Source: a virus
Virus record (IMG/VR): IMGVR_UViG_3300042558_005069
Coordinates: 32,001 to 96,000 of that record
Strand: one strand, 5' to 3'
DNA length: 64,000 bases
Numbering within the stretch: position 1 is the stretch's first letter; the number at the start of each line of letters is the position of its first letter. Position numbers and translations under genes: made by a program. Shown one piece after another: positions 2,593 to 56,052 of this stretch. Under the pieces are notes generated by a model, which worked only from the letters and a program-made list of their open reading frames with translations, searched no databases and was not told where the DNA came from.

Positions 2593-5500
2593 TTACTCTA
2601 AAAAATTAGATTCGTCAATGTAGACGACTCCACTATTGTAATCTTGATCACTCAATGATATTTCCTCTTCAAATCTACGAACTGGCACCCCGAGTTTCTC
2701 TTGCATTTCAAGCTGTTGTTCTGCGGAAATCTCATCATCATCGCGCAGTAAGATGTAAGCAATGTCGTCTTTTGTAACCCCGCTTTTACCATTCCCTGGG
2801 TGAACTTGGGCCTCTATGTAGTCAACTGCTGTTTTAATTTCTCCACCAAATATGTCATCATCTAAGTCTATGTACTGATCAGACATTGCCCTCATTCCAA
2901 ATCCTGGAGCATTGAATGATGACGCAGATGCCATTGTCGAAAGTGAGTCAACCTCAGAAACGGTAGATCTAGAATTTACGCTCGGCTTAAGAACTACAAG
3001 GAACTGCCCATACCCTAAGCCTATGTCCTCCATCTCTTCACCTATTCCTCCGTAGGTTGCGAAACCGTATATCGGACGCAGGCGAGGCTCCATCGATGGA
3101 TGATAGCCGAACATCGATACTTCTTGAGCAGCCCTGTAGCCAGGGTCGTATGCACCATTTGATCTTCCTGCTTCAAATTGAGAAAGTATTCTTCGATCGT
3201 CTCCAGTGCCATCAAAAATTTCTTCTAGCGCGTCCATGTCAAGAGCAATGACCACTCTGTCCTCTTTGAATGGACCTCGGCGCATTGTTCCGAATGTTTT
3301 AGGAACAAAATCAGAATCTGTTAGCTGGAAGTAATAATCTGTAAGTCTTCTAGTCTGATTTATCATTTTTTCGATTAGTGACGATACTGTAACTCCCAAT
3401 TCTTTAGCTTCTCTTTCTGCCCATAGCGTGCGCGTTGCAATAGTTGTTGCACGCTGGAGTAGTCCATTGGCAATGATGTCAGCTTCAAATTCGCGCAAGT
3501 CTGAATACTTTCTTTGCAATATTTCAAGCATTTTAATTTTAGATATCAATAACTGGCGCCTGACTTCACCAGTTATATCTGGAGTCCGAACGGAGGCATA
3601 AGGGTGTATTTGATTGTATTTGAAGTAAAATTTAAAATCTTTATTATTCAACAGTTCATCGATTAGTTCACCCATGGATTCGCCTATCTCCGGGTCTATT
3701 GTCTCGTTGAGTAGCCAAGAAAGTGGTCTTCCTTCGTTTTTTGCCACCTCTAAAGAATTTGTTGGTTTTCTGAAATCAGCATCTACTGATTTCTTACCTT
3801 CTTCAAGACCTAATCCAGCAATCACTCTTGCATTTGTATTCTTTATATGACTGTATATTTCACCAGATTTAAATCGGTTACGCCCAGTGTTTTCTCGTTT
3901 CCCACTGCCTGAATACTCATCGCTACCGCTAGATAGTCTTGCTTCTGGAAGGTCGTATGTTCCCCAGTCAACGTCTCCTGATATGAATTTTCTTTCAATT
4001 TCGGCAAACTTGTCTGATAGCGCAGAGGGCCCATTGGGAAGTTCATGTATCTGAGTAACAATTGCTTTTCTTTTTTTGCCGAGGGTTACGATCTCGGACT
4101 CATTTAGGCACCCCATGCCGGTAAATGGGTTGGCTAGAATTTCCTCTATGGGAATATAGGTGAAATATATGTGTGGAACTTCTTCTTCTACTCCGGCCAT
4201 GCGTAAATCTGCAAAATCAAAAGCCGTATTTCGGTTAGTGGACCAAGATGAAATCGGTCTACTTTCAATCGAAGCCTCGAATAAGAGTGGTTCATTAGTT
4301 TCTGGAATTTTCGTTATTCTTCTAGAATCGTAACCGGATTGTTCTACTGTCATAAGTGATCCACGATAAGCCGGGACATGTGTGATGCCTTTTGACTTAT
4401 AGTATTCCTGCGTTGACTGATACATCGATGAAATAAACTCTTGCAATACTTGCGCTTGAGAAGGGGTCAACTCTGGCGCAGAATCATATTTTTGTGATCC
4501 GTTTGAGATGATGTCTTCTTCTGCCAAGGTACGAAGAAATCCAGGCTTACTTAACGATAAAGCAGAAGATTGAAAAAGATCGGCCGTGGTTGCTGAAGGC
4601 TTTACTTGCCATCCTACCGCTTCATCCAGAGAGAACATCCCCCTTGCTACATGCTGTATTGCTAAAGACACTGGGTTTTCGTCATTTGCTGATATTGACC
4701 ATGAACGAATTAGTTCGGAAACAATTTGTTCCTTTAGTATATTTTCAAAATCAGAACTATCTTTTGAAATAATGTCTTGACCGAAGTAGCTCTTTATGAA
4801 AGTTTCTTGGTCAATAAACCCCGACAAATAATACCTATTTTCAGAAAGCGGGAACGGGGTCCCCTTCAACGGCAGTTCCCCATCGACGAATGCTTCCCAG
4901 AATTGATCAGCTTTGATTTTTCCGGTTTTCACGTATTGGTAAAAACCTAAATTTAACGCACTTGTGAAGTTTGTATTGTACATGAGTGAACTAAGCTGCT
5001 CAAAAAACTTAGGAAATTTTTCGTAGTTTTCTACAATCGAATCCATTAACTTAACGTCAACTTCTTCAGGATTGCCAGAAATTGTAGAATAAATTTTTGT
5101 CATTGCTTCCGTTTGAAAGTCAAAATAAAACTTTTTATTTTCCCAGTAGTTTATTGTTTCTAGTTTAGACACAACACTGTAGATCTCTTCGTCTACCCTG
5201 TTTCTGTATTCGTCTTCGCCCATATCTATAATTGGCTGAACAAATATTTCATGCAGCTCTTTTCTTTTTTCTAGGGTCAGATCTGTTACTTCGTCTACTC
5301 TTGTTTTCTCATTAAATATTTGTCCATCGGTGATATTCAACAAGAATTTGCCTGTTCCGCCATCTTCTACGTCAACCAGTATCTCAACTACTCTCTGAAA
5401 AGAGTCACCGTCCGTGATGAAGGGGAGTCTATCAAAATCTCTTGGATCATCAGAAAGAAAGTTTTGAATTACTGGCTTAGCTCTTCCTTTTTCAACAAAA

Positions 5501-8500
5501 GCGTCCACAATTTCACGCAATGAAACGTTCATTTGTCGAGAAATGTTTTTAGCTATAAAAGATTTTGCTCGAGACGCTGGACTAACTGCCATATCCATGT
5601 CTTGTTGTCTTGTAATTTTATGGATGTCGTCTAGCAAGTCTGAGTTTATGTCCCAAGTCGAAGCAGTAACTTGCCCATTATTTGTTTTTTGTGCTTTTAG
5701 CTTAGGAGATGCTCCTGGCTTGAAGAAAATCTGCCCATTATCGTCTTCGACCATGTATTTTGATTTCTTAGCCTCTTCCCCTGAAGAGAAACTGTCGCTT
5801 ATTTTTTCGAGGACTACGACATCTCGATCCATCATTCTTTTGCTGTATGGATTTTTTATTTGTCGTTTTTCAATCCCTGATACCTTGAACTTCCCTGAAA
5901 CAATGCCTTCCACAATCCCGTAATTTCCACCTTCGGCGCTTGGCTTGCCTCTTGCTGACAATCCTTGCTCGTCGAAAAAAATTCCTCTTGTATCATCGGG
6001 GAATTCAAATATAAACTTTTCAGGAATTGAACGAATAGCTGACAATTCATCGTACTCATATTTGATGGCGTCATTTATCCCGGAAGCAACAGCTGCTGCT
6101 CTAAAATTCAGTTCTTCTCCAATATTTACTACTGACCCAACATCGGGAGTCAGTCTTGCCACCCTGTATGTCCTGTGGCCGATAGGAGGGGCAGACTCAA
6201 GACCATTCCTGATTATCTCAGCAGCTCGATAAAGGGCGGCGTCTTCGGGTACATTCTCTAGATTTTCGACCTCACCAGCTAGATGTCGACTAATCTTCCT
6301 ACTTTCAGCAAAGCTACTGCGCCACAAATTGAGAGTATCTCCCAATTCGGTATCACTCGGTACAATGCCAGGATGCCAGTGTGAGCGAATTAAGAAATTG
6401 CTCATCCTGTTTCTGTCGTTCAGCTTGTCAAGGGCATCTGAAGAACTGTCCAACTCTCCGCTTGTCGGCACGTATCTATACTGATTGCCATATCCAGACT
6501 CTTTTCTAAAATGCATATTTGGGAATCTTGCGATCATCACACTCATTGGGAATTCGTCTTTGAACCATGCTTCTGGAATAGAGATGCGTTCCGGGCCAGT
6601 TCCGGCAGATCTAATTTGGCTTCGGGCTGAGTCGGGATCTACAATTTCGTTTATGTTCGACAATATCTCGCCACCAGAAAAAAAAGCAGTTTGACCGGAC
6701 TCGTCAACTGGGGTTGAATAATCGTTTCTAGATGTTGAAAATCTGTCATTATTTGCAATTCTTAGAATTGCGTTTTCGCTCAATAGGTAAAGAAGCGTAT
6801 CTTGCTGTAATCGATCGTCTTCTCCGATTCTGAATATATCTTTTATTTTAGGGTCAGATGTGAAAGCCGTTATACTTTCTAACTTTAATTGCGTGCTTCC
6901 AGAGTGCGGTCTTGAATCAACTCTTAGATCAAAAGCAATGTCGCGCATTTTTAGATCTATATTTTCCTTTGATCCATCTTCCCCACCGGGGAGTATCGGC
7001 GTTACGTATTTTGAGTTACCGGTCGCTTGTACTCCTGCTTCCCCGAGAGCTTCGTTTACAAGTCTTTGTCGCTCTTTCATAGTTTCGGCAAAAGCTGATT
7101 CCCAAACTTGTTGCTGTTCTGGAGTCCACTCATATTGGAGACCTTCAGGTTTTTCAACCTTAGAGTAGTCGGCTACGGCTGGTAGCTCGATTACGCGATA
7201 GGTGCCTGCTGAAAATAAAATTCCATCTTCGGGTGGGGGCGTTAAGTAGCTGTCGACGACATACAGGTTCTCTAGAGACCCGGGATTATCCTCGTTTACT
7301 TTTTTCATCTGACTTACGATTGCATAACTTTTTCCCTGTGCGCTGGGCCTGTACAGATGACCTTGAACAAGGTGATTTAATGAAAAATGGACACTGTGCC
7401 TATTCGTCCTTAGTGGCTCCCCGGTATATGGGTTTATTACGACTTGTTGAGTATCTTGATTTACTACATCGTAATCGCCATTTGGGTAAATTCTTAAATT
7501 TCCATCTTTGTCAATTTGTGGCTTATGAACAGTTTCATGGACCAGGAATAAGTCATCAAATTTTAGTATCCGAGTTTTGGACTCATATTGATCTTTTTCA
7601 GTGGTAACCATGATATCGCCTGCGCGGTAGTTATTTACCCACCATGCATCGTCTCTATCTTCCGGTCTTACTCCTCCAAGGGAATACCTAGGGCTTGAAC
7701 TGAAGAAATTTTCTCTTCTGTCTGTGAATATTTTTTCAGCAACGGCACTCAGTCTTTCAAGTTCTGCTAAGGCATCCCTGTCTCCACGGGCCGCAGCATA
7801 CAGTAAGGCTGATGTTCTTGATTCCCGAGAACGGTCTTCATCTACTTGCGCAACTGTGGCCATAAACCAAAGACGAGCGAATTCTCGCCCCTCCTTTGAC
7901 TTTGGTGAGGTATTGGAAATGACATATGGGTTCACTGGGAGTCGAAGCACACCTGGGGCATCAATTGAATCTCTTGTGAATGCTATTTGTTTTCCATTTA
8001 TGTCGTGAACTGGAACAAGTGTATCTGTCGTTTCGTTTCTGTCAGGCCTTGCGTATATCTTTCCTTTTACTTCTGCCACTGGATCTTTGGATACAGTTCC
8101 TATTCTGTCGATATCGTTTGCCCCAGAGGAGAGCCGCATGCGTTGTTCTCTAAATGAATTGCGTTGTCTAGTTGAAACCCCAGACCTCTTTGAAGGTCTT
8201 CTTAGAACTATCCTATCCCGTGGGCCAAGATAAACCCCACCCACTGTTCTGCCGGTAATTTCATCTATTCTTCTATCCGATCCGCTTGCAAAATTTCTTC
8301 TTTCCGCGCTGCCTTCTTCGTATTCGTCATGGGTTATAAAGCGGTCGGATGTATTTGCAATTCTTGCTCGATGATTGTCCGACAATACTGCCCAACTAAT
8401 AGGGTCGACAATTAAATTCCTCAATTTGTCTTCGTCGTCTGTGACTTTCTCTATGTCATGGGAGTTTGAGTTGAAATGTCCCCTGGCAGTGACCATTAAT

Positions 8501-11500
8501 TCAGTTGCGATTTGTCCGACCTTGAGGTCCTGATGATCATTCGAGCTCGATCCTCCGGTCTCTCCACCATCAAACGAGTTAGTACCGAAAGATAAAAGCA
8601 ACTGTCTCAACTCTTCATCTACATTTTCAGATGACTCGTTATTTTCAAGTATTGTTGCTCCACGTAATACGAGTGGTTTTTCTGGTTCTGGGACAAACCA
8701 TGAATCAATAACGAACAAGTTTTCAAGAGCTCCTGGATTATCCTCTATAACACTTCTTAAAGGAGTTACGATAATATTGGATTTAGATTTTCTTTCCCTG
8801 AATGAATGTCCCCTGGCTAGGTGATTCAACGTAAAGTGAATGGTTTGTCTGTGATGCTTATATACACCACCATCTTCCGTTGGGATATAACCATAGTCTC
8901 CGGCTGGTCTAAGAAGTACGTTTCCAGCTTCATCTTTTACTATGTCGTATGTTGTTTCATGAACGACATAAAGATCATCTATTGAAAGATTTCCTATACC
9001 TTTTTCATCTGCGGTAGCTTGAAAATACTTTATTTGCGCTGGAGAAAGACGTCCTTCTGTTTGTATTCTTCTTTGTTCTTCTATTAGAAGCTCGCCCTTT
9101 TTCGCAAGATCTTCAAACTCCAACATCGAATCTGCGTCTCCACGCATTCCAGCATAAAGTAAAGCGTCTACATATGTTGATGCTTGGTCCCCGGAACTTT
9201 CGTAACGAGCAGCTCTTGCCGCTATCCAACGGATGGCCGTGTCGCGCCCCTCTGCCGAAGTTGGCGAAAGGCCACTTATGACGTACGGGTTTAATGGAAT
9301 AATCTTTATTTCTTTATCAGTAATTTGGCTCTTTATTTTTTCAGGAATATGACCAAAATAAATTTTATCGTTCCCTATGGCGTGAACTTCTCCACGCATG
9401 CGGACATCTTTACCATTTCTGTCCTGATAAACATTAGACAATAACGTTTTTTGAGTCTGTTTATTAAAAGCTCCAGCTGGGTATACTTGAGCTGGGCCTC
9501 CTGAAGAAAATCTTAAATCTTCGTTTTTGAGTATCTCTCTTCTGTTTGGTCCAAGCATCTCCATTGCAAGAGAGGAAGCTGGCCCGGATCGATCACGACC
9601 CTTTGGATTATTAACAAGCCTAAGTTTTGAAGAGGAGCTTTGATTTGTATTCTGTGGAATCCGACGTTGACGTTCAGCACCAGATGACAAACGCATATCT
9701 ATGACTTTTCTAATTTGACTTCTAGCTACGTCGATGCGGTCTCTGGCTGCGCTTCTTAAATTTGTACCAATAGAAGTTCTTTTGATTAACCTATCTCTCT
9801 CTTCTATTTCTTTCCACGGCGTCTCTCCGTCCCGCAATCCAAGAAATGCACGAGCATCATCTCGTAGTTTTTTTGTAATCCATCTTTCTTGAGCGGTTGG
9901 GTCTGGATGGAGAACCGCTACTGCTCCTTCTGCCAATGCCTCTATCAGGTTTGTGTTCCCGTAACTGTGCGCCGTGCTTGCAAAAGGAAGATTTAACCAT
10001 TGCTCGTCAAATCCTGCTCCGTTCGGGTCTTTGGCTAGCGTGCTCTTTTGAATACTCTGTTGATCTATTAATGGTTCGAAACTATAATATTCTTCCGCGA
10101 CACGTAGACCTCGGTAGCGTGCCGCTCTTCCCTCAGCGGTGCCGTAGTCTCGAATGTACTGACGACCCGTCGCTTTTAGGTCTCTGTAAGGAAGTGCGGC
10201 TGGGTTAGTAGCAAAAACCCCTCCCAGCTCAGCCTCAATCATTGCCCGCATATGTATGTAATGAACGAGTTCGTGTTTAAAAACAGCAGATATAGATCGA
10301 TCCATCACTGTTGTGCTGCCAATACTGAATTCCGAGGTAAGATCTATTTCTCCCTGAGATGTTCTTCCGGTTTCAATTGCTTCCCACGCAGCAACAATGT
10401 TCAGAGTTGGGACAAGTTGATCCAGCCAGGCTGCAGAAAGCGAATCATCTGTCTGAATGTTTTTTACTATAGGGGGAGACCCGAATGTCTCCATTAGCCA
10501 TTTAAGCTCAGGACTCGCATCGAGTGAAGCTTCAACAGCTTTTCTCAAAAGATTTACATTTTGCGGAGAAAAATCAATTTCTGTCTTGCGCGATTTTAGC
10601 AATTCAATTATTAGTTTTCTCATTAATGTTCGTATTTCTTCTGGTGAAGCCCAATTGCTCGGAGGAATTGGAAACAAATCAAAAATAATTTCCATGTATT
10701 CATCTTCACTAGAAGGCACCATTAAGTTTGCAATCTGACTTGATGATAGCCCCTGCAAGAAACCAGGAGTTGATATTCTTAGTTCAACACCCATCTCCGT
10801 TATCTGCCCATATCTATAATCCATAGATTGATGCCTCTTGAGCTGCTCTAACTCATCGCGACGCAGTGGCTTAAGGAGAGGATCAATCTTTATTATTGGC
10901 CTGTCTCTATCTGGTTTTGCAGGAGGTATTCCGACATCCAGTATTGGTCGGTCATCGTCCCCCGAGGAAAACCTTGCAGTTTCACTTTCAAAATTTATAA
11001 ATCTTCTCTTAGCTGCGTCAAATTCTTCACGTGCAGTTTGAAAATTCTTTGTTCTCTCGTCTAGGAAATCTTCTCTTTGGGCCCTGTCTAGAATTCTGTT
11101 ATCCCAACCGCGACTTTCTGCCTGATTAATCATCGCGTGCATGACCATTCCGGCAGCAGTTGCATCCTGTTCCGCTGAATGATGCCTATCGAGGCGCACT
11201 TCAAGATATTCGGCTAGAGCGCTTAGTGTAGTAGATGCGACTCTTGTGTCTCCGCGGATGACTGATGGACCATCTTTGTTTTCTTCAGAATATTTTGGAA
11301 GAACCATTTGAGCCATATCAAGAGAATCAATGTATCCAGATGGACGCCACATAATCCCGGCCTCCGCGAGAGCATCCTCAAGGACGTTTTTGTCAAATAT
11401 TGCGTTTTGTACGCCCATTATTGCGCCCGGGCCAGCGAACTCAGCGACCATGCGATGAGCGTCCTGAATACTCATCTGCTGTGCAAGCCACTCATCGGTA

Positions 11501-14500
11501 AGCGGCTCTCCGTCTGTTCTGTAAAGATTCAACCTTGACCACTCTCTCAATGGTTCGGTCGGATTCATAAACAAATTTAATTTGTCTATAACTTTTCCAC
11601 CTCTCATCTTCACAAGAGCTATTTCTACTGGCTTACCATTGCTCGCACGTTCCCTGAAGCGGTCAAAGTCAATACCTGTAGTTTCGTAATCAATAAAAAT
11701 TATGTCTCTATTGTTAAATATTTCTCTTAGCTCGCGCCAAGTTTTTGCTTCACCAAATATGAAGTCAGCCTCACCTATAAACGGTCCGTAACTTGGTTCG
11801 CGGGGAAATGACGGCATTTTTACTTCACCACTGCTAAGGCGTCGGGGGTTATCGTCTGGATCATAACCAAATTCGAGAAGAGAATTTCCTTCAGTGAAAA
11901 GGTGCTTTGCTTTTACTCGCTGACTTACTATTCTGTATTTTCCTTTTCCTCCCAGATTGGAGTCTCCGTGAAGTTTTGCGTATGACCGCAATGGGCTAAC
12001 CCAGTCGCCAGCGTTTATTTTTAGATTTTTGTCAATGTGCTTTGCATTCCTAAGCATTTCTATTTCTCGACTAATTTCGTCATAGTATTCGTTTATGTCT
12101 GATATATCTGCAGAAACATACTTTGGAACTCGGCCATATTGTAAAATATGTGATTTCTGTGTTTCTAGTTCTTTTATTCTCTCATTGGGGAGTAAAGGAA
12201 CAGCACGATAGACCGTAACTAGCGCTTCAGGCTTGCCCTTGATTTGCTTTATAATTCTAAGTGCTTCTGGAGCCAACGGGTCGGTACTGGCGTAGAGGGC
12301 AGCACCGTTTGGCCCATAGACTTCTTCTGGATACATTCCGTCAGCAATATTGTGCATCGGAGCGCCACTGTTCCTATCGGGAGCCTGGTGGAAACCTCTG
12401 TAGTCTTCGTCCTTACTAAATGGAACATCGGAAGTACCGCTTGAAAATCTGTCAGACCCAAGTTTGCTATCGAAACGCCTATCAGTCACATTAATTAACG
12501 CCGAGCGACGAGGCCCCTTTACGGGACCAGTCCCTCCAGTTGCGGCCTTCCACCATTTGTCGCCATCGTCTGTTGTCGCTCCCGCTGAAATCTCATAAGT
12601 TGGCATACTGATGCGTAATGCGTCAAGGAGGGCCGACCCAATCCCCATCCTTTTAAAATCTTCGCCTACTTCTATCATCGCCACAACAGCAGTACTGTCG
12701 ATACTTTCGGAATTGTAATCAATGTATCCTGCTAGCTTCCCACTTTCATCGAAAGCAGCTAAGTATCCGTTGTACTGATCACGACCGGGGGAGTCACCGC
12801 CATGAGACAAAGTAAACCTTTTGCCCCCAACATTGAATCCGACCGGGTCATCAAACGGTTTATCTTTTCCTAGCCGCTCAATTTCTATCGTTACTTTCTG
12901 GCCTGAGGAAAATTTATTATCGTGATCCTTAACTGCTGATGAAAGAAATTTTATTGGGCTTATTTCCCCCGATGCTAGCGGAAGTTTGTTTTTAGTTGCA
13001 GCGTTCCGTGAGTTCATTTCGCTTGTAGACCATTCGTCGACTACTGACGCAGGGAGCCGATCAAGCAATAGCTTTAAGCGGAGATCTTGATTTTTTTGAT
13101 ATCGCTCCTTATCTATTACTCTGCGATAGCCAACTTCTATGCCATTTCCGTTATTCAATTCCGAAAAGAAAGTAGATAAAGATTCTTTATTTGCTTTTGA
13201 CAGCATCTCTTCAGGATTCTTAAAGGATGAATAAGTCATTCCGTTTTCAGTGTAGTAACCGCTTAGGAGTTGTTCTCTTTCTGTTTTTGTAAAATATTTT
13301 TTTGTTGCGGTGTCGTTGTTTTCTGCCAAAAGCTGCCTATGCAGCGCCCCGACCATTTTTGATCTAGAGGCGGCCCCATTCCACTCAAAACCGTTCATGC
13401 CCCAATAGGTTGCTCCGTTTGAGGAATAGGCATCTCCAAATGGAGAGTCCTTCACTATGTCGGATCTGCCGGTGAGACTTATTGAATCAACTTCTAGAGC
13501 TTTCCATATATTTTCAGAGTAAGCCATGAAAGAAGTGCTAATCCCTGAATTCCTAAGCTCAGGCTTTACGAAAATTTGGTTTAAATCAACCGAGAGACCG
13601 GTATTTGTAATTGATAATTTAAAGCTAGCCGTACCAACGTCTGACAATTCTTGAACATTTGTTCCAGCTACATTTTCTTGAGGAAAACTTAATTTTACAT
13701 CAACATAAACGGGCAAAGATTCTCCCGATGCAACAACGCTCGCTCCGTAGTCCACGCTGCTTACTTGAGATGATAAAGGCAATTCTTCTTGTGCGAATAT
13801 GTTTGATCGAGAAACATCGATCAACAATTCTGATCCAAGATTGAACCTCTCTCCACTAGAGCTTTCTACTACAACATTATTTCTTAGAGGAATAGAAATA
13901 TTGTTAAATAATTTATTCAGTGATTGCAAAAAGTTGTCTTTTAGGCTGTCGTCATCGGCAAATTCTAAGTATGAAAATCTTTCTGGCTGCTCAATATTCT
14001 TGTTTTCTGGAGTAAATAATTTTCCAGAACGCCATTGAATCGATGGTAAAACAAAGTTGACAATCATGTCTCTTGTGTCGAAAGCGTTGGTAAGTTTTTC
14101 ACCATCTAGTTTTTGTCTTTCGACTTCTGTTTCATAATTGGCACCAGAAGAAAAGGTGTCCGAGCCACCATCGACGGAGCTAATTTCTCTATCTTCAAAG
14201 TCTATTGAAGTATTTTTATCTAAATTATAAAACTCGTGAAGGTTAGAAATTGTATTTAGCAAACCATTTAATGGTCGATTAGCAGGGGTTGCCTCTGCGA
14301 ATGCTCTACCGTCATCGCTAAGTGCGTTGCTGTGTTGAAGGTTGAATTCTGGAAAAGCTTCTCTTTGCGTGTAGAACATCTCTGCCGCAATACCGCGCCT
14401 GCGGTGACCGCGTCTTGTCTGGATTTCCAAAACTTCTAGCTGGCCATCATTTGGAGCCCAAACTGACATCCTTGCTATGACTGGTGCGGTTCCTTTTCCC

Positions 14501-16287
14501 GTAAGGCTCCGAAGTACGTCCTGGTCATCGACATCATTTGGACCAATTGGTGATTTCTTTTTATTAAAAGGGTTTTCGCCTTGTTCGTCAAATATTTTTG
14601 CAAGAGAATTGCGTTCTTTTTCAATGTCTGACTCCAAATAGGATACGACATCTCCATTTTGCGTGACGATTATTCTATATTCAGTATCTTTATTTTTAAC
14701 TTTTTTTGAAGCGAATATATCTCCATAGTCGTGAAGATTCAGTGGTGACAGTTGCTCCATACCGCTGGAAAACGCACCAACAAGCTCTCTGTCGTTACTT
14801 AATCTGCGCTCGTACCCAATTGTTACGTTTTTCTCCTGAAACAAACTAGTTGCCTGTTCAAAAGCAAGAAGTTCTTCCGCGCTTGAATCTGTTTCAAACA
14901 CAGAATTACCATCTACTCTTCTTTCTTCTATTAGGAGAGATATCCGTTTTCTCTCTTCTTCGCTAAACCAATTTTGCGTTTGGTCGTCAAGTCCATCTTT
15001 AATTACGCGAAGAAAATCTTGTTTTGCTTTTTCTCCAGACCACGTAAATCCATTTTTTGGCCAGTGCGTTGCCCCAATTCGATTTCCCTCTTTGTCGGAC
15101 AACCCGCCCGTATATATTCTTTTTGCGTCAATCGCATTATATATTTTTTCATTACTTGCATTAAATAAGCTACCTATGCCAAGACCCTGTGATGGCTCGT
15201 TTAGAAAGAAAGTATCGTGGATAACTGTTATTCCAGAGTCTTTTTCTCTAGTATTAAACATTATTGTCCTGGAAGATGAACCAAACTGGATTCGGTCAAG
15301 TTCCGGAGTTCCTTCTGGGAGTGCATAAGCGTTTTCGAGCATTTCTTCTGGCACTCCGGCTTTCGCCAACCGATCCATTGCTTCCTCTGACGGAGCCAAC
15401 CTCATGCGAAGCTTTATATTCATAAATGTTTGTTTTTCGGAATCTTCATCAAAAATTGTTGTATATAGCTGTTCTTCTGCCTGTTCATTAATATCATTTA
15501 AATTTATGTCCGCTAGCTCAATATCCCAGCCCTTATATTTATTACCTGGCCGGACAGAAATGCGAACCGTTTTTCCTAAATTTATTTTTTCACCGTTTTT
15601 GGCGGTAACTACAATGTCTTTTTCCAGTTCTATTTCGCTATTAAAAATTTCCGCGAGCAAATCATGTATTCTTTTTTTTGCTTCCAACCGCTCCGGTGAG
15701 TCGGCCAGTTCTTTCGTGTCTTCGTCAAAAATGTCTTTGATTGTCGTGAATTCATCTTGCTCAACAAGCAAATCACTTCTTAGTAGTTCTTTTAGTTCTT
15801 CTATTTTCTGTAATTTTTCTTGCGTTAATTCGGGCCGGGAATCAACAAGCTCTTGATATGTTGCTCCAGAAGAAAAAGTGGTTGACCTATCTGGAGATTC
15901 CTCACCGCCAAAAAGCTGACTTCCTGACGATGGTCTGGTTTTTTTGGGGGAAAGTTCCGAATCCCTAGTGCTCTGTTTTGGTTTTTTACCCTCGGATGCA
16001 GTGCCAACATATATTGGCTTTGTTGTTCCTTCGTCAGCCCAGCCGTCACCGTCTGGGTCTCTTCTTGAGCCAGTCGGCTTTCTTGTGCCGGGCTTACCTC
16101 CGGTGGGTAGGTCTATGTCTCCCTGGCTGCGCCCGCCGCGACGACGGCCAAGGCTAGGAATCCCGGAAAGCCTGTTTGAAGCATAGGAAGCAAGACGTCG
16201 ACCAAGAGCTTTTTCCTCAAGGTCTGGTTCGCGGCCTTTGCGTGATTCATCAAAGGGGATGAGAAATTCATTTTCTTCACTTGACAT
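2593..16287 (-). CDS. giant polyvalent protein, 4564 aa: 4 GNAT-like, several ART-like, DEDDh exonuclease, HExxH zincin and DUF3626-like modules
   Basis: Uninterrupted 13.7 kb ORF; motifs QGLGIG, RRRGIA, RNSGIS, KRMGIG (GNAT motif A); IDYETTG..HSAEQD (DEDDh); HELVH; YRG..SSWS..ESE; SQFE..RPIYG..YIEAQVH. Confidence 0.85.
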   Translation of the reverse strand: MSSEENEFLIPFDESRKGREPDLEEKALGRRLASYASNRLSGIPSLGRRRGGRSQGDIDLPTGGKPGTRKPTGSRRDPDGDGWADEGTTKPIYVGTASEGKKPKQSTRDSELSPKKTRPSSGSQLFGGEESPDRSTTFSSGATYQELVDSRPELTQEKLQKIEELKELLRSDLLVEQDEFTTIKDIFDEDTKELADSPERLEAKKRIHDLLAEIFNSEIELEKDIVVTAKNGEKINLGKTVRISVRPGNKYKGWDIELADINLNDINEQAEEQLYTTIFDEDSEKQTFMNIKLRMRLAPSEEAMDRLAKAGVPEEMLENAYALPEGTPELDRIQFGSSSRTIMFNTREKDSGITVIHDTFFLNEPSQGLGIGSLFNASNEKIYNAIDAKRIYTGGLSDKEGNRIGATHWPKNGFTWSGEKAKQDFLRVIKDGLDDQTQNWFSEEERKRISLLIEERRVDGNSVFETDSSAEELLAFEQATSLFQEKNVTIGYERRLSNDRELVGAFSSGMEQLSPLNLHDYGDIFASKKVKNKDTEYRIIVTQNGDVVSYLESDIEKERNSLAKIFDEQGENPFNKKKSPIGPNDVDDQDVLRSLTGKGTAPVIARMSVWAPNDGQLEVLEIQTRRGHRRRGIAAEMFYTQREAFPEFNLQHSNALSDDGRAFAEATPANRPLNGLLNTISNLHEFYNLDKNTSIDFEDREISSVDGGSDTFSSGANYETEVERQKLDGEKLTNAFDTRDMIVNFVLPSIQWRSGKLFTPENKNIEQPERFSYLEFADDDSLKDNFLQSLNKLFNNISIPLRNNVVVESSSGERFNLGSELLIDVSRSNIFAQEELPLSSQVSSVDYGASVVASGESLPVYVDVKLSFPQENVAGTNVQELSDVGTASFKLSITNTGLSVDLNQIFVKPELRNSGISTSFMAYSENIWKALEVDSISLTGRSDIVKDSPFGDAYSSNGATYWGMNGFEWNGAASRSKMVGALHRQLLAENNDTATKKYFTKTEREQLLSGYYTENGMTYSSFKNPEEMLSKANKESLSTFFSELNNGNGIEVGYRRVIDKERYQKNQDLRLKLLLDRLPASVVDEWSTSEMNSRNAATKNKLPLASGEISPIKFLSSAVKDHDNKFSSGQKVTIEIERLGKDKPFDDPVGFNVGGKRFTLSHGGDSPGRDQYNGYLAAFDESGKLAGYIDYNSESIDSTAVVAMIEVGEDFKRMGIGSALLDALRISMPTYEISAGATTDDGDKWWKAATGGTGPVKGPRRSALINVTDRRFDSKLGSDRFSSGTSDVPFSKDEDYRGFHQAPDRNSGAPMHNIADGMYPEEVYGPNGAALYASTDPLAPEALRIIKQIKGKPEALVTVYRAVPLLPNERIKELETQKSHILQYGRVPKYVSADISDINEYYDEISREIEMLRNAKHIDKNLKINAGDWVSPLRSYAKLHGDSNLGGKGKYRIVSQRVKAKHLFTEGNSLLEFGYDPDDNPRRLSSGEVKMPSFPREPSYGPFIGEADFIFGEAKTWRELREIFNNRDIIFIDYETTGIDFDRFRERASNGKPVEIALVKMRGGKVIDKLNLFMNPTEPLREWSRLNLYRTDGEPLTDEWLAQQMSIQDAHRMVAEFAGPGAIMGVQNAIFDKNVLEDALAEAGIMWRPSGYIDSLDMAQMVLPKYSEENKDGPSVIRGDTRVASTTLSALAEYLEVRLDRHHSAEQDATAAGMVMHAMINQAESRGWDNRILDRAQREDFLDERTKNFQTAREEFDAAKRRFINFESETARFSSGDDDRPILDVGIPPAKPDRDRPIIKIDPLLKPLRRDELEQLKRHQSMDYRYGQITEMGVELRISTPGFLQGLSSSQIANLMVPSSEDEYMEIIFDLFPIPPSNWASPEEIRTLMRKLIIELLKSRKTEIDFSPQNVNLLRKAVEASLDASPELKWLMETFGSPPIVKNIQTDDSLSAAWLDQLVPTLNIVAAWEAIETGRTSQGEIDLTSEFSIGSTTVMDRSISAVFKHELVHYIHMRAMIEAELGGVFATNPAALPYRDLKATGRQYIRDYGTAEGRAARYRGLRVAEEYYSFEPLIDQQSIQKSTLAKDPNGAGFDEQWLNLPFASTAHSYGNTNLIEALAEGAVAVLHPDPTAQERWITKKLRDDARAFLGLRDGETPWKEIEERDRLIKRTSIGTNLRSAARDRIDVARSQIRKVIDMRLSSGAERQRRIPQNTNQSSSSKLRLVNNPKGRDRSGPASSLAMEMLGPNRREILKNEDLRFSSGGPAQVYPAGAFNKQTQKTLLSNVYQDRNGKDVRMRGEVHAIGNDKIYFGHIPEKIKSQITDKEIKIIPLNPYVISGLSPTSAEGRDTAIRWIAARAARYESSGDQASTYVDALLYAGMRGDADSMLEFEDLAKKGELLIEEQRRIQTEGRLSPAQIKYFQATADEKGIGNLSIDDLYVVHETTYDIVKDEAGNVLLRPAGDYGYIPTEDGGVYKHHRQTIHFTLNHLARGHSFRERKSKSNIIVTPLRSVIEDNPGALENLFVIDSWFVPEPEKPLVLRGATILENNESSENVDEELRQLLLSFGTNSFDGGETGGSSSNDHQDLKVGQIATELMVTARGHFNSNSHDIEKVTDDEDKLRNLIVDPISWAVLSDNHRARIANTSDRFITHDEYEEGSAERRNFASGSDRRIDEITGRTVGGVYLGPRDRIVLRRPSKRSGVSTRQRNSFREQRMRLSSGANDIDRIGTVSKDPVAEVKGKIYARPDRNETTDTLVPVHDINGKQIAFTRDSIDAPGVLRLPVNPYVISNTSPKSKEGREFARLWFMATVAQVDEDRSRESRTSALLYAAARGDRDALAELERLSAVAEKIFTDRRENFFSSSPRYSLGGVRPEDRDDAWWVNNYRAGDIMVTTEKDQYESKTRILKFDDLFLVHETVHKPQIDKDGNLRIYPNGDYDVVNQDTQQVVINPYTGEPLRTNRHSVHFSLNHLVQGHLYRPSAQGKSYAIVSQMKKVNEDNPGSLENLYVVDSYLTPPPEDGILFSAGTYRVIELPAVADYSKVEKPEGLQYEWTPEQQQVWESAFAETMKERQRLVNEALGEAGVQATGNSKYVTPILPGGEDGSKENIDLKMRDIAFDLRVDSRPHSGSTQLKLESITAFTSDPKIKDIFRIGEDDRLQQDTLLYLLSENAILRIANNDRFSTSRNDYSTPVDESGQTAFFSGGEILSNINEIVDPDSARSQIRSAGTGPERISIPEAWFKDEFPMSVMIARFPNMHFRKESGYGNQYRYVPTSGELDSSSDALDKLNDRNRMSNFLIRSHWHPGIVPSDTELGDTLNLWRSSFAESRKISRHLAGEVENLENVPEDAALYRAAEIIRNGLESAPPIGHRTYRVARLTPDVGSVVNIGEELNFRAAAVASGINDAIKYEYDELSAIRSIPEKFIFEFPDDTRGIFFDEQGLSARGKPSAEGGNYGIVEGIVSGKFKVSGIEKRQIKNPYSKRMMDRDVVVLEKISDSFSSGEEAKKSKYMVEDDNGQIFFKPGASPKLKAQKTNNGQVTASTWDINSDLLDDIHKITRQQDMDMAVSPASRAKSFIAKNISRQMNVSLREIVDAFVEKGRAKPVIQNFLSDDPRDFDRLPFITDGDSFQRVVEILVDVEDGGTGKFLLNITDGQIFNEKTRVDEVTDLTLEKRKELHEIFVQPIIDMGEDEYRNRVDEEIYSVVSKLETINYWENKKFYFDFQTEAMTKIYSTISGNPEEVDVKLMDSIVENYEKFPKFFEQLSSLMYNTNFTSALNLGFYQYVKTGKIKADQFWEAFVDGELPLKGTPFPLSENRYYLSGFIDQETFIKSYFGQDIISKDSSDFENILKEQIVSELIRSWSISANDENPVSLAIQHVARGMFSLDEAVGWQVKPSATTADLFQSSALSLSKPGFLRTLAEEDIISNGSQKYDSAPELTPSQAQVLQEFISSMYQSTQEYYKSKGITHVPAYRGSLMTVEQSGYDSRRITKIPETNEPLLFEASIESRPISSWSTNRNTAFDFADLRMAGVEEEVPHIYFTYIPIEEILANPFTGMGCLNESEIVTLGKKRKAIVTQIHELPNGPSALSDKFAEIERKFISGDVDWGTYDLPEARLSSGSDEYSGSGKRENTGRNRFKSGEIYSHIKNTNARVIAGLGLEEGKKSVDADFRKPTNSLEVAKNEGRPLSWLLNETIDPEIGESMGELIDELLNNKDFKFYFKYNQIHPYASVRTPDITGEVRRQLLISKIKMLEILQRKYSDLREFEADIIANGLLQRATTIATRTLWAEREAKELGVTVSSLIEKMINQTRRLTDYYFQLTDSDFVPKTFGTMRRGPFKEDRVVIALDMDALEEIFDGTGDDRRILSQFEAGRSNGAYDPGYRAAQEVSMFGYHPSMEPRLRPIYGFATYGGIGEEMEDIGLGYGQFLVVLKPSVNSRSTVSEVDSLSTMASASSFNAPGFGMRAMSDQYIDLDDDIFGGEIKTAVDYIEAQVHPGNGKSGVTKDDIAYILLRDDDEISAEQQLEMQEKLGVPVRRFEEEISLSDQDYNSGVVYIDESNFLE

Positions 16288-16330
16288 TTAGAGCAATAAT
16301 ACCATTTGTTGATGGCTTAAAATGCGGAAA

Positions 16331-19107: not shown

Positions 19108-19445
19108 CTCGCATCTCGCAATCTTGGAATCACTGGATCAAATGGCTCTCTTTGAACCATGAGAATATTGTGTCGTTTTCTTAATAGTTTGCGCTCACGC
19201 TCCGTGGTTCCGCCCCAGATGCCAAAAATTTCATGATACAGCGCATAATTTAAACACGGATCGATTTGCTTGCAGTCACTGCATATCGCTTTTGCTAAGT
19301 TCGTTTGCTCATTTGCTTTTCGATACTGGACAGAGAAATCTCTTCCCTTGCTTCTTTCCGCATGAGGAAACCACATTTTTACATCTTTACCGATGCAGTC
19401 GCCTCCAGTTGGGGGTGTATCGATCCGTTCGTGTGTTGGTCTCAT
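19104..19445 (-). CDS. whiB: WhiB-family transcription factor
   Basis: C..WFP..AKAICSDCKQIDPCLNYAL..GIWGGTTERER; start at MRPTHE with a GGAGG SD. Confidence 0.93.
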   Translation of the reverse strand: MRPTHERIDTPPTGGDCIGKDVKMWFPHAERSKGRDFSVQYRKANEQTNLAKAICSDCKQIDPCLNYALYHEIFGIWGGTTERERKLLRKRHNILMVQREPFDPVIPRLRDAR

Positions 19446-23417: not shown

Positions 23418-23490
<73 letters not shown>

Positions 23491-23492
23491 CT

Positions 23493-27021: not shown

Positions 27022-28407
27022 TTACGCAGTAGGAGCGGCGTCGAATTCAACCTTGACGAATGCTTCTGGACGCTTTACCGCAAGGGCGAGGCGTTGTTCG
27101 GCGAGAATAACAATCGCGTTGCGGATGAAGAAATCGCTGTGCTGCTCACTGATGCGGATAGATGCCTGCTCGCGGTCATAAAGCTGAGCACCGGTGCCAA
27201 ACGCGCCGACCAAAGCCATACCTTCCTGCATTGCTGGAGTATCAACAAGTGGCATTCTCCATACTCTTGGCTCGCCACCCATCGCAACAGAAACTGCGAT
27301 GAGGTACTGGCCATTGACGTCTTTTGTCAATTCGATGTCTTCCCAATCATTTGGGTGAACAACGATACCGCTTGGCTCGTAGTAAGCCAAGAAGGAGAGT
27401 GTAGCCGCACGGCGAATTGCGTCAGCTTTGGTGTCACCAGCCGTAACGTTTGCAACTCCAGCAACACCGTCAGACCAAGCGTATTCCTGGACTCCTGGGG
27501 TGTTCATCACGCCGAGCAAGTTTTCGCCCAGTCCGTCACCGTTGAGGATTTGATTGTCCTCAAGGAGGCGCAAGCCGTACATAAGCTCGTTGTCGATGAT
27601 TGAGCGAAGCTGTGGTTCATCGGCAAGAACGTTGCGGTGTGCTGCTTCCCAGTGAGCGAGTGTTCTAATTGGGGCCTGTTCACCAACGAACTGGAATGAA
27701 GATTGTGGCTTCAACCCAAATACTCCGCCAACTCTTTCAGCGACAGTAGACGCTGCGTTGTTGGTTGAGTAGGTGCTTGCAGTTACGCCTGGAGCAGAAA
27801 TCGTCGTAAAACCGATTTGACGGAAGTACTCAATAACTGCTGCTGTTGTAGTCCGAACAGGGAACAAGTCACGAACGCGCTTTGTGCGTGTTGGTGGTGT
27901 TACCATCGGATCGCGCTGAACCGTACCGAAAGAGCCGAGACGGCTGTCAGCTACGGTTGTTGAAGGCAAGCCAGAGAAGACATCCTTCACATTGTAGCCA
28001 CTCAAAGAGATGTTTGCCATCCATGGAGCTGCCATGTTTGCGCCGTTACGGCCACCAGCAAGTGCCTTGAACTCTACTGAGTCAAGGAACATCTGACCGA
28101 TGCTCTTGATCTCGCTTGAGGTCAATTGGCTGATTTCTGATGCTGCAGCTGAATAGCTTGATGCGACCGACTCTGATGCTGGCTGCGAAGACCAGCTGTC
28201 AACGTCACCCATTGTCTGCAAGTCAGAAAGGAGTGATTTAATTTCCTTAATGTCACGCATGTTCTTGTCGAATGCTGTTTTTTGTTCTGAAGAAACAACA
28301 ACTGTTCCTTCTTCTACCTTGAATGAGTCAGCAATGGCCTTATTGTCAGCCATTTTAACTCTGAGAGCTGATTGCAGCTCATCAATTCTTCCATTGTCTT
28401 GCGACAT
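27022..28407 (-). CDS. major capsid protein, HK97 family, with an N-terminal delta domain
   Basis: VRDLFPV, IRTLAHW, QILNGDG..NLLGV, IVVHPNDW, FIRNAIVILAEQRLALAVKRPEAFV; AGGAG SD. Confidence 0.95.
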   Translation of the reverse strand: MSQDNGRIDELQSALRVKMADNKAIADSFKVEEGTVVVSSEQKTAFDKNMRDIKEIKSLLSDLQTMGDVDSWSSQPASESVASSYSAAASEISQLTSSEIKSIGQMFLDSVEFKALAGGRNGANMAAPWMANISLSGYNVKDVFSGLPSTTVADSRLGSFGTVQRDPMVTPPTRTKRVRDLFPVRTTTAAVIEYFRQIGFTTISAPGVTASTYSTNNAASTVAERVGGVFGLKPQSSFQFVGEQAPIRTLAHWEAAHRNVLADEPQLRSIIDNELMYGLRLLEDNQILNGDGLGENLLGVMNTPGVQEYAWSDGVAGVANVTAGDTKADAIRRAATLSFLAYYEPSGIVVHPNDWEDIELTKDVNGQYLIAVSVAMGGEPRVWRMPLVDTPAMQEGMALVGAFGTGAQLYDREQASIRISEQHSDFFIRNAIVILAEQRLALAVKRPEAFVKVEFDAAPTA

Positions 28408-32709: not shown

Positions 32710-33213
32710 TTATTTACCTTCCAGATTACGCATAATCTTCATAGCCATCCACGCTTCTTTTCTTTCAGTTTGTGTCCCAAAAGAATAAGTTCCGCCTACT
32801 GACTTTAGCATTTCTCCGCAGCATGTAGAAGTAGCAGCAAGTTTATCGTCACTATTTGCAAGGAAAAGAAGAGCTCTTGCGTCTTTCGTTTTAATTTTAC
32901 TGCGAGCTTCTCCGACTGAAGTAAGGATTACGGCTTGCTCTAAAGATTTTTCTGGAATTTCTTTTTCTTTTGTTACAAAAGTCTTATACCAAGAACCATT
33001 GACAACGTTCTTTGGTTTATCCCATAGAAAGCGATGAAACCGAGTCGTTCTAAATTTTTTGAGACCAGAAACTTTTGATGTTGTTGATATGAAGTTCACT
33101 TTAATCGAAGACCCATTTTGTCTTTCTATAATTCCATCTTTTTCTCCAGGGCCAGCGTCTGTTATGTAATACAACTTGTCATTATGAATAGAGCCCACAA
33201 GTACAGCCTTCAC
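32710..33213 (-). CDS. hypothetical protein
   Basis: GTGA overlap with the upstream stop; GGAGG SD. Confidence 0.7.
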   Translation of the reverse strand: MKAVLVGSIHNDKLYYITDAGPGEKDGIIERQNGSSIKVNFISTTSKVSGLKKFRTTRFHRFLWDKPKNVVNGSWYKTFVTKEKEIPEKSLEQAVILTSVGEARSKIKTKDARALLFLANSDDKLAATSTCCGEMLKSVGGTYSFGTQTERKEAWMAMKIMRNLEGK

Positions 33214-40789: not shown

Positions 40790-42499
<1,710 letters not shown>

Positions 42500-42634
42500 A
42501 TGGCTCCTATTGTGTGGGTGAATGACCATCGGGACATTGACCTATAAACTGTGTGGCAAACTATAACGTATCACGTTCCGAGCCTTAAAATTAGCAACAT
42601 TCAATGGCTTTAAGAAAAATAGTTTTTATCTTCC

Positions 42635-54738: not shown

Positions 54739-56052
54739 ATGGATAATAAACCCAATTGGGCGGAGGTCCTCGAATACCTTCAACCTAAGGAACCTCCATT
54801 TTGCCCCGAGGAACCCTCTATTAACCAAAAAGTATTTCTTCGCACGAACGCTCTAGAAGCGTTGTTCGGGGGAGCGGCTGGCGGTGGAAAAAGTTCAGCA
54901 TTGCTAATGGCAGCATTGCAGTACGTTGACGTACCTGGATATTCTGCACTTCTTTGCCGTCGTACATTTGCCGACTTATCGCTCCCTGGAGCATTGATGG
55001 ACCGTTTTAAGTCATGGATGAGCAACTATGACGATATCCATTGGAATAACAACACTTTTATTGCTACGTTTCCATCGGGAGCAAGAATATCCTTCGGTTA
55101 CCTCAATAATGTCAACGATTATCTTAGATATAAGGGTTCGGAATTTCAGTTCATAGGGATGGACGAAGTTACGGAAATACGTGAATCTGACTACAGGTAT
55201 TTGTTTTCTCGCCTCCGTCGCCCAGCTAACGGTCCAGTTTCGCAAGTCCCACTAAGAATGCGATGTGCGTCAAACCCTGCTCCAAACTGGGTGCGTCAAA
55301 GATTTATAGTTGAAGGAAAAGAAACAAATAGAATTTTTGTACCCTCTACGCTGAAGGACAACCCAGGAATTGACGCCGACTCGTACAGGCAGTCATTGTC
55401 CGCACTCGACCCCGTTGAGCGGCGAAGACTGGAAGAAGGAGACTGGTGGTCTACGACTCTTGGCACAATGTTTGACAGAACATCATTTGAGATAATAGAC
55501 CCAATTGACATCCCGATAATAACCAGCGCAGCAAGAGTGGTTCGTTTTTGGGACCTTGCAGCTACGGAACCAAGTGCCTCAAACCCTGACCCAGACTGGA
55601 CTGTCGGCACTTTAATGCTTTTCAATGGCGGCGTAGCTTATGTTTTGGACGTAAGGAGAGCAAGAGTTCGGGGAGAAAAAGTAGAACAATTAATTTCTCA
55701 GACATCAATAGAAGATGGGCATGGGGTAGCGATACGCATGGAACAAGAACCAGGCTCCTCCGGAAAAGCATTGCTGGATCAATACGCTAGATACGTAGTT
55801 CCTGGCTACGATTTCGGCGCTGTACGCGCTACGGGGGACAAAGTGACCCGCGCTAGACCATTCGCTGCAGCGGTAGCCAATGGAAACGTTCGGTTAGTTC
55901 GAGGTCCGTGGATAACTGGATGGCTTGATGAATTTGCCTCTTTCCCGGAAGCCTGCGACCACGACGACCAAGTCGACTCGGCTGTTGGAGCATTTACTCA
56001 TTTAACGGGCCTTGGGTTGCCACAGAGAAAACGAGCATCTATACTCATCTAG
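54739..56052 (+). CDS. terL: terminase large subunit
   Basis: Walker A GGAAGGGKS, Walker B FIGMDE, ASNP, DNP, nuclease WDLA..DWTVG..HDDQVD. Confidence 0.95.
   Translation: MDNKPNWAEVLEYLQPKEPPFCPEEPSINQKVFLRTNALEALFGGAAGGGKSSALLMAALQYVDVPGYSALLCRRTFADLSLPGALMDRFKSWMSNYDDIHWNNNTFIATFPSGARISFGYLNNVNDYLRYKGSEFQFIGMDEVTEIRESDYRYLFSRLRRPANGPVSQVPLRMRCASNPAPNWVRQRFIVEGKETNRIFVPSTLKDNPGIDADSYRQSLSALDPVERRRLEEGDWWSTTLGTMFDRTSFEIIDPIDIPIITSAARVVRFWDLAATEPSASNPDPDWTVGTLMLFNGGVAYVLDVRRARVRGEKVEQLISQTSIEDGHGVAIRMEQEPGSSGKALLDQYARYVVPGYDFGAVRATGDKVTRARPFAAAVANGNVRLVRGPWITGWLDEFASFPEACDHDDQVDSAVGAFTHLTGLGLPQRKRASILI

Follow-up and report, generated by a model that had tools for sequence, protein, structure and literature searches.

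Polyvalent proteins are regarded as one of the chief means by which phages disarm a host within seconds of infecting it, and, to our knowledge, how chains of ten or more enzymes become active has so far only been guessed at. Phage T4 provides a related case with Alt, an ADP-ribosyltransferase (ART). Polyvalent proteins are predicted to be injected with the DNA and to be released by embedded peptidases (PMC5512222, PMC9503650). The reported range is 2-15 domains, with ART, GNAT and zincin peptidase domains being typical (PMC5512222; Iyer, Burroughs, Anand, de Souza, Aravind 2017), and ARTs are the commonest cargo (PMC9503650). Short motifs serve as the sites at which the prohead protease cleaves head-internal and ejection proteins of T4 and SPN3US (PMC5694885, PMC10052503), and DdrB of phage P1 is processed before packaging (PMC5512222). 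Here, a gene for a protein of 4564 amino acids (aa) is described, which is located in bases 32001-96000 of the 104,099-bp IMG/VR virus record IMGVR_UViG_3300042558_005069 (CheckV completeness estimate 65%). This stretch of 64,000 nt is referred to as the window, and all coordinates are positions within it unless marked as genome or locus coordinates. The gene (2593..16287, minus strand) is proposed to encode a polyvalent effector polyprotein of a freshwater actinobacterial phage, punctuated by protease sites, which would be loaded into the prohead by its leader, cut, and ejected with the DNA. The probability of this reading is estimated at about 0.55.

The minus-strand open reading frame (ORF) is open across 4564 codons, as seen in the ORF list and the translation. 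Contigs of four independent lake-water metagenome runs spanned all 14.1 kb with at least 99% identity and showed no indels or joints, so that an assembly chimera or artefact was rejected and the ORF is considered real. It is also recurrent, as the gene was recovered from 20 runs between 2018 and 2024, exclusively lake-water metagenomes; no RNA data set containing it was listed among the runs.

Within the protein the motif [FL]SSG starts at residues 138, 506, 712, 1126, 1281, 1484, 1773, 2200, 2260, 2719, 3500 and 4118, which corresponds to 12 copies compared to a mean of 0.28 expected (2000 shuffles). Two variant sites, FASG at 2666 and FFSG at 3202, were identified in addition. The 15 motif-bounded segments of the original prediction could thus be confirmed, and their lengths (137, 364, 202, 410, 151, 199, 285, 423, 56, 402, 49, 479, 294, 614 and 443 aa) are exact once FASG and FFSG are counted. 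These segments are numbered C1 to C15 from the N-terminus and comprise a leader and about 14 modules, namely four GNAT or GNAT-like modules, a DEDDh exonuclease, a zincin, two copies of a domain called B, three modules with an ART fold, one module of a phage-only family and two basic peptides.

The motif codons vary between copies: Ser is encoded by TCN or AGY and all four Gly codons are used. An origin of the motif as DNA repeat or recombination site was rejected, as the codons differ between copies. Seven full-length homologues of 3373-4703 aa, which range from 93% to 36% identity, retain the motif at the module junctions, whereas the residues around it diverge. The variable codons and the persistence of the motif between diverging flanks show that it is selected at the protein level. 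Among the five close homologues, FASG is kept as [FIL]ASG in all and FFSG in three, which makes the C12/C13 boundary the weakest. A degenerate PSSG at residue 119 aligns with LSSG of relatives.

A scan of IMG/VR resulted in 68 related loci with 42 distinct giant ORFs (124,838 aa), in which 355 copies of [FL]SSG were found while 6.4 are expected. The consensus across the giants is (R/K)-[LFM]-[S>A,T]-S-G. At position 1 only L, F and M are enriched, position 2 tolerates A and T, and S at position 3 and G at position 4 hardly vary. In the 42 giant ORFs, 70% of the copies have R or K in front of them, and the motif is usually followed by R, A or K. Non-giant ORFs with the motif are almost all giants truncated at a contig end or antisense shadow ORFs, with two single-copy ORFs as exceptions. 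In the genome studied here, the motif is confined to four real ORFs, all of them giants (4564, 3207 and 2524 aa, and 901 aa cut by the contig end). The 901-aa ORF (genome 101395-104099, plus strand; locus L004:5395-8097) carries FASG at aa 36 and 594 and FSSG at aa 647; it gave no family match and probably represents a fourth punctuated protein. The motif most likely shows where the chain is cleaved by a phage protease. That it would be a processing site common to the head-module proteins is the main inference of this work and goes beyond the original prediction.

AlphaFold2 models of C12+C13 and C14+C15 were computed from alignments of 11 and 19 rows, respectively. The C12+C13 model (mean predicted local distance difference test, pLDDT, of 62.5) is folded at residues 1-457 (mostly 65-90), disordered at 458-584 and of modest confidence at 585-777 (about 50-80). 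In the C14+C15 model (mean pLDDT 63.0), residues 440-610 form a confident alpha/beta domain, 612-639 are disordered and 640-1047 make up a further folded unit. FFSG corresponds to model residue 480, in the stretch 458-584 with pLDDT below 50, and LSSG-4118 to model residue 615, in the stretch 612-639. In the models, both motif sites are therefore predicted to lie in disordered linkers between folded domains. For C12-C15, AlphaFold and Foldseek thus bore out the expectation that the segments fold as separate domains, and most of the families that had been named hold. Across all giants, the surroundings of the motif are more polar than average: in windows of 21 residues, with the S-S-G of the motif itself counted, the fraction of disorder-promoting residues is 0.74, compared to an average of 0.63 (SD 0.10).

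The punctuation peptide differs in a second lineage. Among the giants of at least 1000 aa that carry domain B, nearer relatives have several [FLM]SSG and many distant ones have none. Four distant giants (P0080, P0064, P0054, P0067) repeat (R)-G-F-A-S-[S/A/R] 5-12 times at similar spacing. Within their contigs (loci L073-L075; three short loci) this GFAS motif is confined to the giant. The proteins start with the same leader pattern, KALG...DPxxDGDGDG, and the first GFAS follows at about aa 81-90. Such a lineage-dependent change of punctuation is as expected of a co-evolving protease and site. The GC content of the GFAS lineage is about 49-50%, and each protein has two to four HExxH motifs.

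The location of the motif in flexible, polar linkers would also suit a linker or docking element, a handle for a partner or a hinge for threading through the tail, in which case the intact giant would act in the manner of the N4 virion RNA polymerase; cleavage at the motif is, after all, an interpretation of the pattern. A strict consensus of 4-5 residues with a preceding basic residue at every domain boundary is, however, the signature of a protease site, another lineage uses a different short consensus instead, and a role as linkers would hardly explain conserved peptides of 49-56 aa with a motif at either end. A docking role is therefore considered quite improbable.

The leader C1 (aa 1-137; 15877..16287, minus strand) has a conserved core at aa ~22-118 with KALG...DPDGDGW. 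Its residues 1-95 hardly differ among 6 homologues whose identity is otherwise 45%, and the leader module (core aa 22-118) was detected in 35 giant ORFs. In relatives it also occurs at aa ~537-650 of giants that are led by a prohead protease, directly before their first motif, where it comes right after the part that is orthologous to aa 1-571 of the 3207-aa giant. Because relatives carry the leader module in front of the first motif of these protease-led giants, leader and first site are a unit common to both kinds of giant. The leader is proposed to be a head-targeting module that is removed at the first motif.

Behind this leader the modules are cassettes that are shuffled among relatives. 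When 49 giants were cut at the motif, 557 cassettes in 74 similarity clusters were obtained. Their order and combination vary among relatives, with the exonuclease located at aa 131, 731, 874, 2466 or 3145. The largest related giant observed (locus L041:7160-30052, plus strand; at least 7631 aa) has duplicate ART-type cassettes and 19 copies of [FL]SSG, or 20 with the broader [FLM][SAT]SG.

Two of the other motif-bearing giants are located in the head module. The large terminase gene (54739..56052, plus strand) is divergent from the portal gene (52355..54457, minus strand; PF04860, E 2e-50). On the minus strand the portal gene is followed by the 3207-aa giant, a 579-aa ORF, the 2524-aa giant, several small ORFs and the major capsid gene (27022..28407, minus strand; phrog_10, E 1.1e-56), the product of which has no punctuation motif. 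The 3207-aa giant (42635..52258, minus strand), directly after the portal gene, has FSSG at aa 720, 1094 and 2577. Its N-terminus is a Peptidase_S78 prohead protease (PF04586; aa 31-174, 42 bits with a cut-off of 21), of which His70 and Ser134 are invariant in nine relatives and which is 71-79% identical among relatives. ArdC-N (PF08401) and MPTase-PolyVal (PF18818) domains follow after FSSG-720, a UvrD-like helicase after FSSG-1094 and a C-terminal module of 630 aa without family assignment after FSSG-2577. The in-frame fusion of the S78 prohead protease to about 3000 aa of cargo is kept in many relatives (2954-4740 aa). Residues 175-570 of the 3207-aa giant contain a Cys cluster (CxxC...C...C). 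The 2524-aa giant (33210..40784, minus strand) has FSSG at aa 1316, 1456 and 2015, and neither it nor the 579-aa ORF (40790-42529, minus strand) matched Pfam or PHROG. With the broader [FLM][SAT]SG the 2524-aa giant has four sites (three by strict FSSG); it has a first piece of 1330 aa and an HEFAH motif.

The position of these two giants between the portal and capsid genes, one of them starting with Peptidase_S78, argues for a role of the punctuated chains in the head. In the proposed mechanism, the leader would bring the 4564-aa chain into the assembling prohead, alongside the two head-module giants, and a phage protease would cut at every motif. The HK97-type S78 prohead protease at the N-terminus of the 3207-aa sibling is the favoured candidate. 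The released enzymes and basic peptides would then be ejected with the DNA and would act on the proteins and nucleic acids of the host, modifying them as soon as infection begins. Prohead loading and cutting by S78 are favoured by analogy with the internal proteins and Alt of T4 and with the ejection proteins of SPN3US and phiKZ. Assemblin-fold proteases recognize sites with a hydrophobic P3 and a defined P1 residue, such as L/I-x-E in T4 and V/L-x-A, cut before S, in herpesviruses. The motif, read as [LFM]-x-S with the cut before G, fits this pattern, which is taken as support for cutting by S78. When the S78 domain was modelled together with the C9 peptide and both its flanking motifs, without controls, the prediction gave no answer (score 0.00).

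The same polyprotein and sites could be served by a different protease. Anthrax lethal factor, a zinc peptidase, prefers upstream basic residues and a hydrophobic P1' residue. An embedded zincin (C8, or MPTase-PolyVal in the sibling) might cut in cis or in trans, possibly after ejection, between the basic residue and [LFM]SSG. Nearly every complete giant carries HExxH, far more than the roughly 0.1 per protein that chance would give, and sites that are basic and then hydrophobic suit a zincin cutting before L, F or M. The HExxH and Glu ligands of C8 are invariant, and the C8 profile weakly matched the C-terminal zinc-ligand region of anthrax lethal factor (E 0.054). Furthermore, polyvalent proteins have been suggested to process themselves through their MPTase domains (PMC5512222). 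Against this, zincins of different families (C8-type and MPTase-PolyVal) would need one shared specificity, whereas the motif is common to all giants of the genome and the conserved S78 domain is the one common protease. Several motif-rich ORFs have no HExxH, but because they are truncated at locus ends they are not decisive for the identity of the cutter. Cutting by the zincin is considered rather unlikely, although it is the alternative that we take most seriously.

The location of the 4564-aa gene is less easily combined with prohead loading. It is found 10.7 kb from the major capsid gene, in line with the about 10 kb stated before. An RNase E-like protein (phrog_645; 16638-17270, minus strand) and a primase (17263-19107, minus strand) flank it, and ribonucleotide reductase (21424-23349, plus strand) and a single-stranded DNA-binding protein (254-763, plus strand) are encoded in its neighbourhood; its surroundings therefore belong to replication and nucleotide metabolism and not to structural functions. 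The extended -10-like box TGGTATTAT that had been reported in front of the gene is real (16304..16296, minus strand) and is the sole exact copy in the 104-kb record. A scan for consensus sigma-70 sites detected neither a promoter nor a terminator in front of the gene. A -10 box just before the ATG, without a Shine-Dalgarno sequence, is the layout of leaderless actinobacterial genes. Because the box ends 8 nt before the ATG and a ribosome-binding site is absent, a leaderless-type start with its own promoter-like box is suggested. The claim that the gene stands alone could not be upheld, as a same-strand ORF without family match (16331-16690) ends 43 nt upstream.

A gene outside the head module, among replication genes and behind its own -10-like box could also encode a polyprotein that is not packaged but is made and processed in the infected cell, providing host-takeover enzymes at fixed stoichiometry as in RNA viruses. 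Transcribing and translating 13.7 kb would, however, presumably be slow for an early function. The same motif is also present in two giants between portal and capsid, one of which is fused to the prohead protease, and the leader is common to protease-led head proteins of relatives. Synthesis without packaging is thus regarded as unlikely.

Several further observations weigh against the proposed loading and cutting in the prohead, in addition to this distance from the head module and the abundance of HExxH zincins. When all ORFs were scanned, the motif was absent from the capsid protein and from the candidate scaffold ORFs, so that S78 would need other sites for capsid and scaffold. The match of the leader to the 3207-aa sibling in its own genome was only marginal (E 0.05, pairwise), and no other leader paralogue was detected in this genome, for which the record is incomplete. 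The mean pLDDT of both structure models was only about 63, and one of the ART-fold modules, C13, may be inactive (see below). Moreover, cleavage, the protease responsible, packaging and virion association, ejection and the targets are inferred, the enzyme activities are predicted, and the phage is uncultured.

All modules are encoded on the minus strand. C2 (aa 142-505; 14773..15864; after FSSG 138) and C4 (aa 716-1125; 12913..14142; after FSSG 712), which had been described as GNAT-like A and A', are a paralogue pair that arose by internal duplication (hhalign 100%). Their relationship was thus correctly recognized, while the link to GNAT is only weak (2aj6, E 0.19 for C2; Acetyltransf_7, E 0.27 for C4; hhalign 18%). 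The GNAT assignment, judged by a hidden Markov model match above its cut-off or by a profile link to a validated member, holds for the two other modules: C3 (aa 510-711; 14155..14760; after FSSG 506) aligned with hhalign at 99% to a cassette of the homologue P0006 that matches Pfam GNAT models, and C5 (aa 1130-1280; 12448..12900; after FSSG 1126) is the sole PF00583 match in the genome (28.2 bits, cut-off 20.7). C6 (aa 1285-1483; 11839..12435; after FSSG 1281) matched phrog_2579, the PHROG 'ParB C-terminal' family (E 2.6e-29), and has homologues in other phage records. Its neighbours in the ESM Atlas are viral hypothetical proteins, with a PARP lead of just 0.77, and the module is assigned to a phage-only family. 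The ART-like label that it had been given could not be established.

C7 (aa 1488-1772; 10972..11826; after LSSG 1484) is indeed a predicted DEDDh 3'-5' exonuclease (RNase_T): PF00929 scored 44.6 bits with a cut-off of 24, PolC exonuclease structures were matched by sequence, and D1533, E1535, D1632, H1703 and D1708 are invariant in 6 homologues. The zincin reading of C8 (aa 1777-2199; 9691..10959; after FSSG 1773) is likewise supported. It contains HELVH at aa 2005-2009, and H2005, E2006, H2009, E2116 and E2120 are invariant across two alignments (HExxH and E..AE motif). The module was not matched by PF18818 and is predicted to be a gluzincin metallopeptidase.

C9 (aa 2204-2259; 9511..9678; between LSSG 2200 and FSSG 2260) is a conserved basic peptide with the same length of 56 aa in 6 giants (cluster 19) and many invariant positions. 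C11 (aa 2670-2718; 8134..8280; between FASG 2666 and LSSG 2719) is an Arg-rich, basic peptide of 49 aa. Like C11, C9 is rich in Arg, and both are conserved in sequence as well as in length. If released, C9 and C11 could act as small basic, DNA-associated peptides inside the head. Short cassettes of 46-60 aa recur in relatives. Searches of PDB sequences with the whole protein and with profiles identified the exonuclease only, and Pfam searches with ten separate segments at E <= 5 added only a hint of DUF3626.

C10 (aa 2264-2665; 8293..9498) and C12 (aa 2723-3201; 6685..8121), which had been named unknown B and B' and considered related, are an internal duplication (hhalign 100%). In C10 numbering, R217, H221, N225, H226, G230, H231 and R234 are invariant, which gives the signature R..H..NH...GH..R. 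B is found in 560 representative clusters (50% identity) at E <= 1e-3 and in 113 at E <= 1e-30, and B-bearing proteins span 160-6526 aa (P0013-P0159). A B profile of 32 members matched no Pfam family and no PDB sequence, and the ESM Atlas gave no usable match. Fold leads from the C12 model were weak (KptA, Z 3.9; PltA, Z 3.8), and both belong to the ART superfamily. On the basis of these searches, B is taken to be a large, widespread and uncharacterised domain family that is absent from Pfam.

The last three modules show ART folds. C13 (aa 3206-3499; 5791..6672; after FFSG 3202) consists of a disordered linker of ~100 aa and an ART fold at aa ~3301-3499. The fold matches those of the C2-I, iota, CDTa, VIP2 and C3 ARTs (Foldseek E 2e-4; VIA Z up to 10.7 with 163 residues aligned at a root mean square deviation of 3.7), and R3375 and E3460 are invariant and located on the expected strands of the model. 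A clear STS motif and a Glu or Gln two residues before E3460 are missing. Because this motif and the first Glu/Gln of ExE are absent, C13 may be inactive. PF03496 (ADPrib_exo_Tox/VIP2) had no candidate in the genome and no match at E <= 1, and PF18760 had no candidate in the genome either. The one PF03496-positive cassette of the family is a different cassette, in P0006, to which C13 aligned with hhalign at 0.2%. The VIP2-like fold that had been proposed for C13 is thus retained, while membership in the VIP2 family is not.

C14 (aa 3504-4117; 3937..5778; after FSSG 3500) has a helical N-terminal part and a C-terminal R-S-ExE ART-like domain at aa ~3943-4113. YRG at 3974-3976 (R3975), SSW at 4013-4015 (S4013/S4014; SSWST) and ESE at 4063-4065 (E4063, E4065) are invariant. 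Support from the fold was weak (Z 4-5.8), with nearly all matches being ARTs. These data agree with the earlier assignment and support a predicted R-S-E ADP-ribosyltransferase in the C-terminal domain. C15 (aa 4122-4564; 2596..3924; after LSSG 4118) was proposed to be DUF3626-like, and PF12294 stayed below its cut-off of 27 with 19.9-21.1 bits (E 1.7e-4 in the library, 1.5e-5 in the genome). Its fold places it in the ART superfamily as a SopF/DUF3626-like domain, with matches to SopF (Foldseek E 5e-4, prob 1.00; VIA Z 8.6 over 198 residues), DarT (Z 7.3) and Tpt1. When C6, C13, C14 and C15 were compared by hhalign with one another and with the validated VIP2-type cassette, nothing was found.

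For the VIP2-like and ART genes of freshwater actinophages, a role as 'Trojan-horse' toxins against eukaryotic grazers of the infected bacterium was proposed (PMC6802176), and the VIP2/C2-like fold of C13 would be in line with this. In the 4564-aa protein, however, no signal peptide, B/translocation component or receptor-binding part is present, and PF03496 is without a match. The companions of the ART folds are GNATs, an exonuclease and a zincin and, in a sibling, ArdC and a helicase, and these have bacterial targets. Such a role of the ART modules is thus highly improbable, and the polyprotein proposed here offers a host-directed alternative for ART genes in abundant lake phages.

The presence of a WhiB-like gene (19185..19403, minus strand; PF02467, 52.2 bits, above the cut-off) points to an actinobacterium as host. 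The GC content is about 43%, and a low-GC freshwater actinobacterial host would fit the exclusive occurrence of the gene in lake-water metagenomes. When 50,697 cultured-phage records were searched, only the tRNA matched at the DNA level, and only C6-like and exonuclease-like proteins matched at the protein level. This tRNA-Arg(TCT) gene (23418-23491) is the only tRNA gene. It is directly followed by a 384-aa ORF (23493-24647, plus strand) with similarity to the haem-binding C-terminal part of cytochrome P450 (E 2e-22), an unusual finding for a phage.

Neither the repertoire of domains nor the concept of injecting a multi-enzyme protein is new, and the reading of the modules as a payload matches the published class of polyvalent proteins (PMC5512222), which the original prediction did not name. 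A strict punctuation peptide common to all giants of one genome was not found described in the literature, nor were its swap for another peptide in a second lineage, a common leader, a prohead protease fused to the N-terminus of its cargo, or cassette shuffling on such a scale. It is proposed tentatively, at a little below even odds, that freshwater actinophages and at least one GFAS lineage run a true polyprotein strategy, with a common head-targeting leader, shuffled cassettes and basic peptides, lineage-specific protease sites, a cargo-fused prohead protease and the undescribed enzyme family B. By marking cut sites, the punctuation peptide would give a concrete and testable answer to the question how an enzyme chain becomes active. 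The motif also permits hundreds of giants to be parsed automatically into functional cassettes, of which 557 were obtained here, the putative head-targeting leader could serve to load foreign proteins into capsids, and B is flagged as a large uncharacterised enzyme family.

With polyvalent proteins, the 4564-aa protein shares that one phage-encoded chain holds many unrelated effector domains, here GNAT, RNase_T, zincin and three ART folds. The hub domains zincin, ART and GNAT are all present; C8 falls outside PF18818, and it is the 3207-aa sibling that carries the signature pair of ArdC-N (PF08401) and MPTase-PolyVal (PF18818). In contrast to the described proteins, the chain is at the upper end of the range of 2-15 domains and has one short peptide at every junction, which is common to all giants of the genome. 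No such punctuation was found in PMC5512222, from which the word 'linker' is absent. One of the giants is led by an assemblin-like prohead protease and does not end in it, and the modules are shuffled cassettes behind a common leader.

In T4 (IPI-III and Alt) and in phiKZ and SPN3US, enzymes and anti-restriction proteins are loaded into the prohead via an N-terminal targeting part, cut at L/I-x-E or A-x-E and ejected (PMC5694885, PMC10052503, PMC9503650). The phage studied here likewise encodes a prohead protease, and its giant has a conserved leader followed by a first motif, which may correspond to such a targeting part and its site. There, the proteins are encoded by separate genes and receive one or few cuts, whereas up to 14 cuts are proposed here in one chain. 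The protease is of the HK97/S78 type and not of the T4 gp21 type, the motif is unrelated, and the system is known here from sequence alone.

With polyproteins of eukaryotic RNA viruses, the giant would have in common that one translation product carries a repeated short cleavage consensus at its domain borders and an embedded protease. It differs in that it belongs to a tailed dsDNA phage and holds accessory, host-modifying modules instead of replicase or capsid proteins; no homology exists between the two. Finally, DarB and DdrB of P1 and the virion RNA polymerase of N4 are also very large, head-packaged and injected proteins with enzymatic functions in anti-defence or takeover, but they have single or few functions and are without the regular punctuation that is found in this giant.

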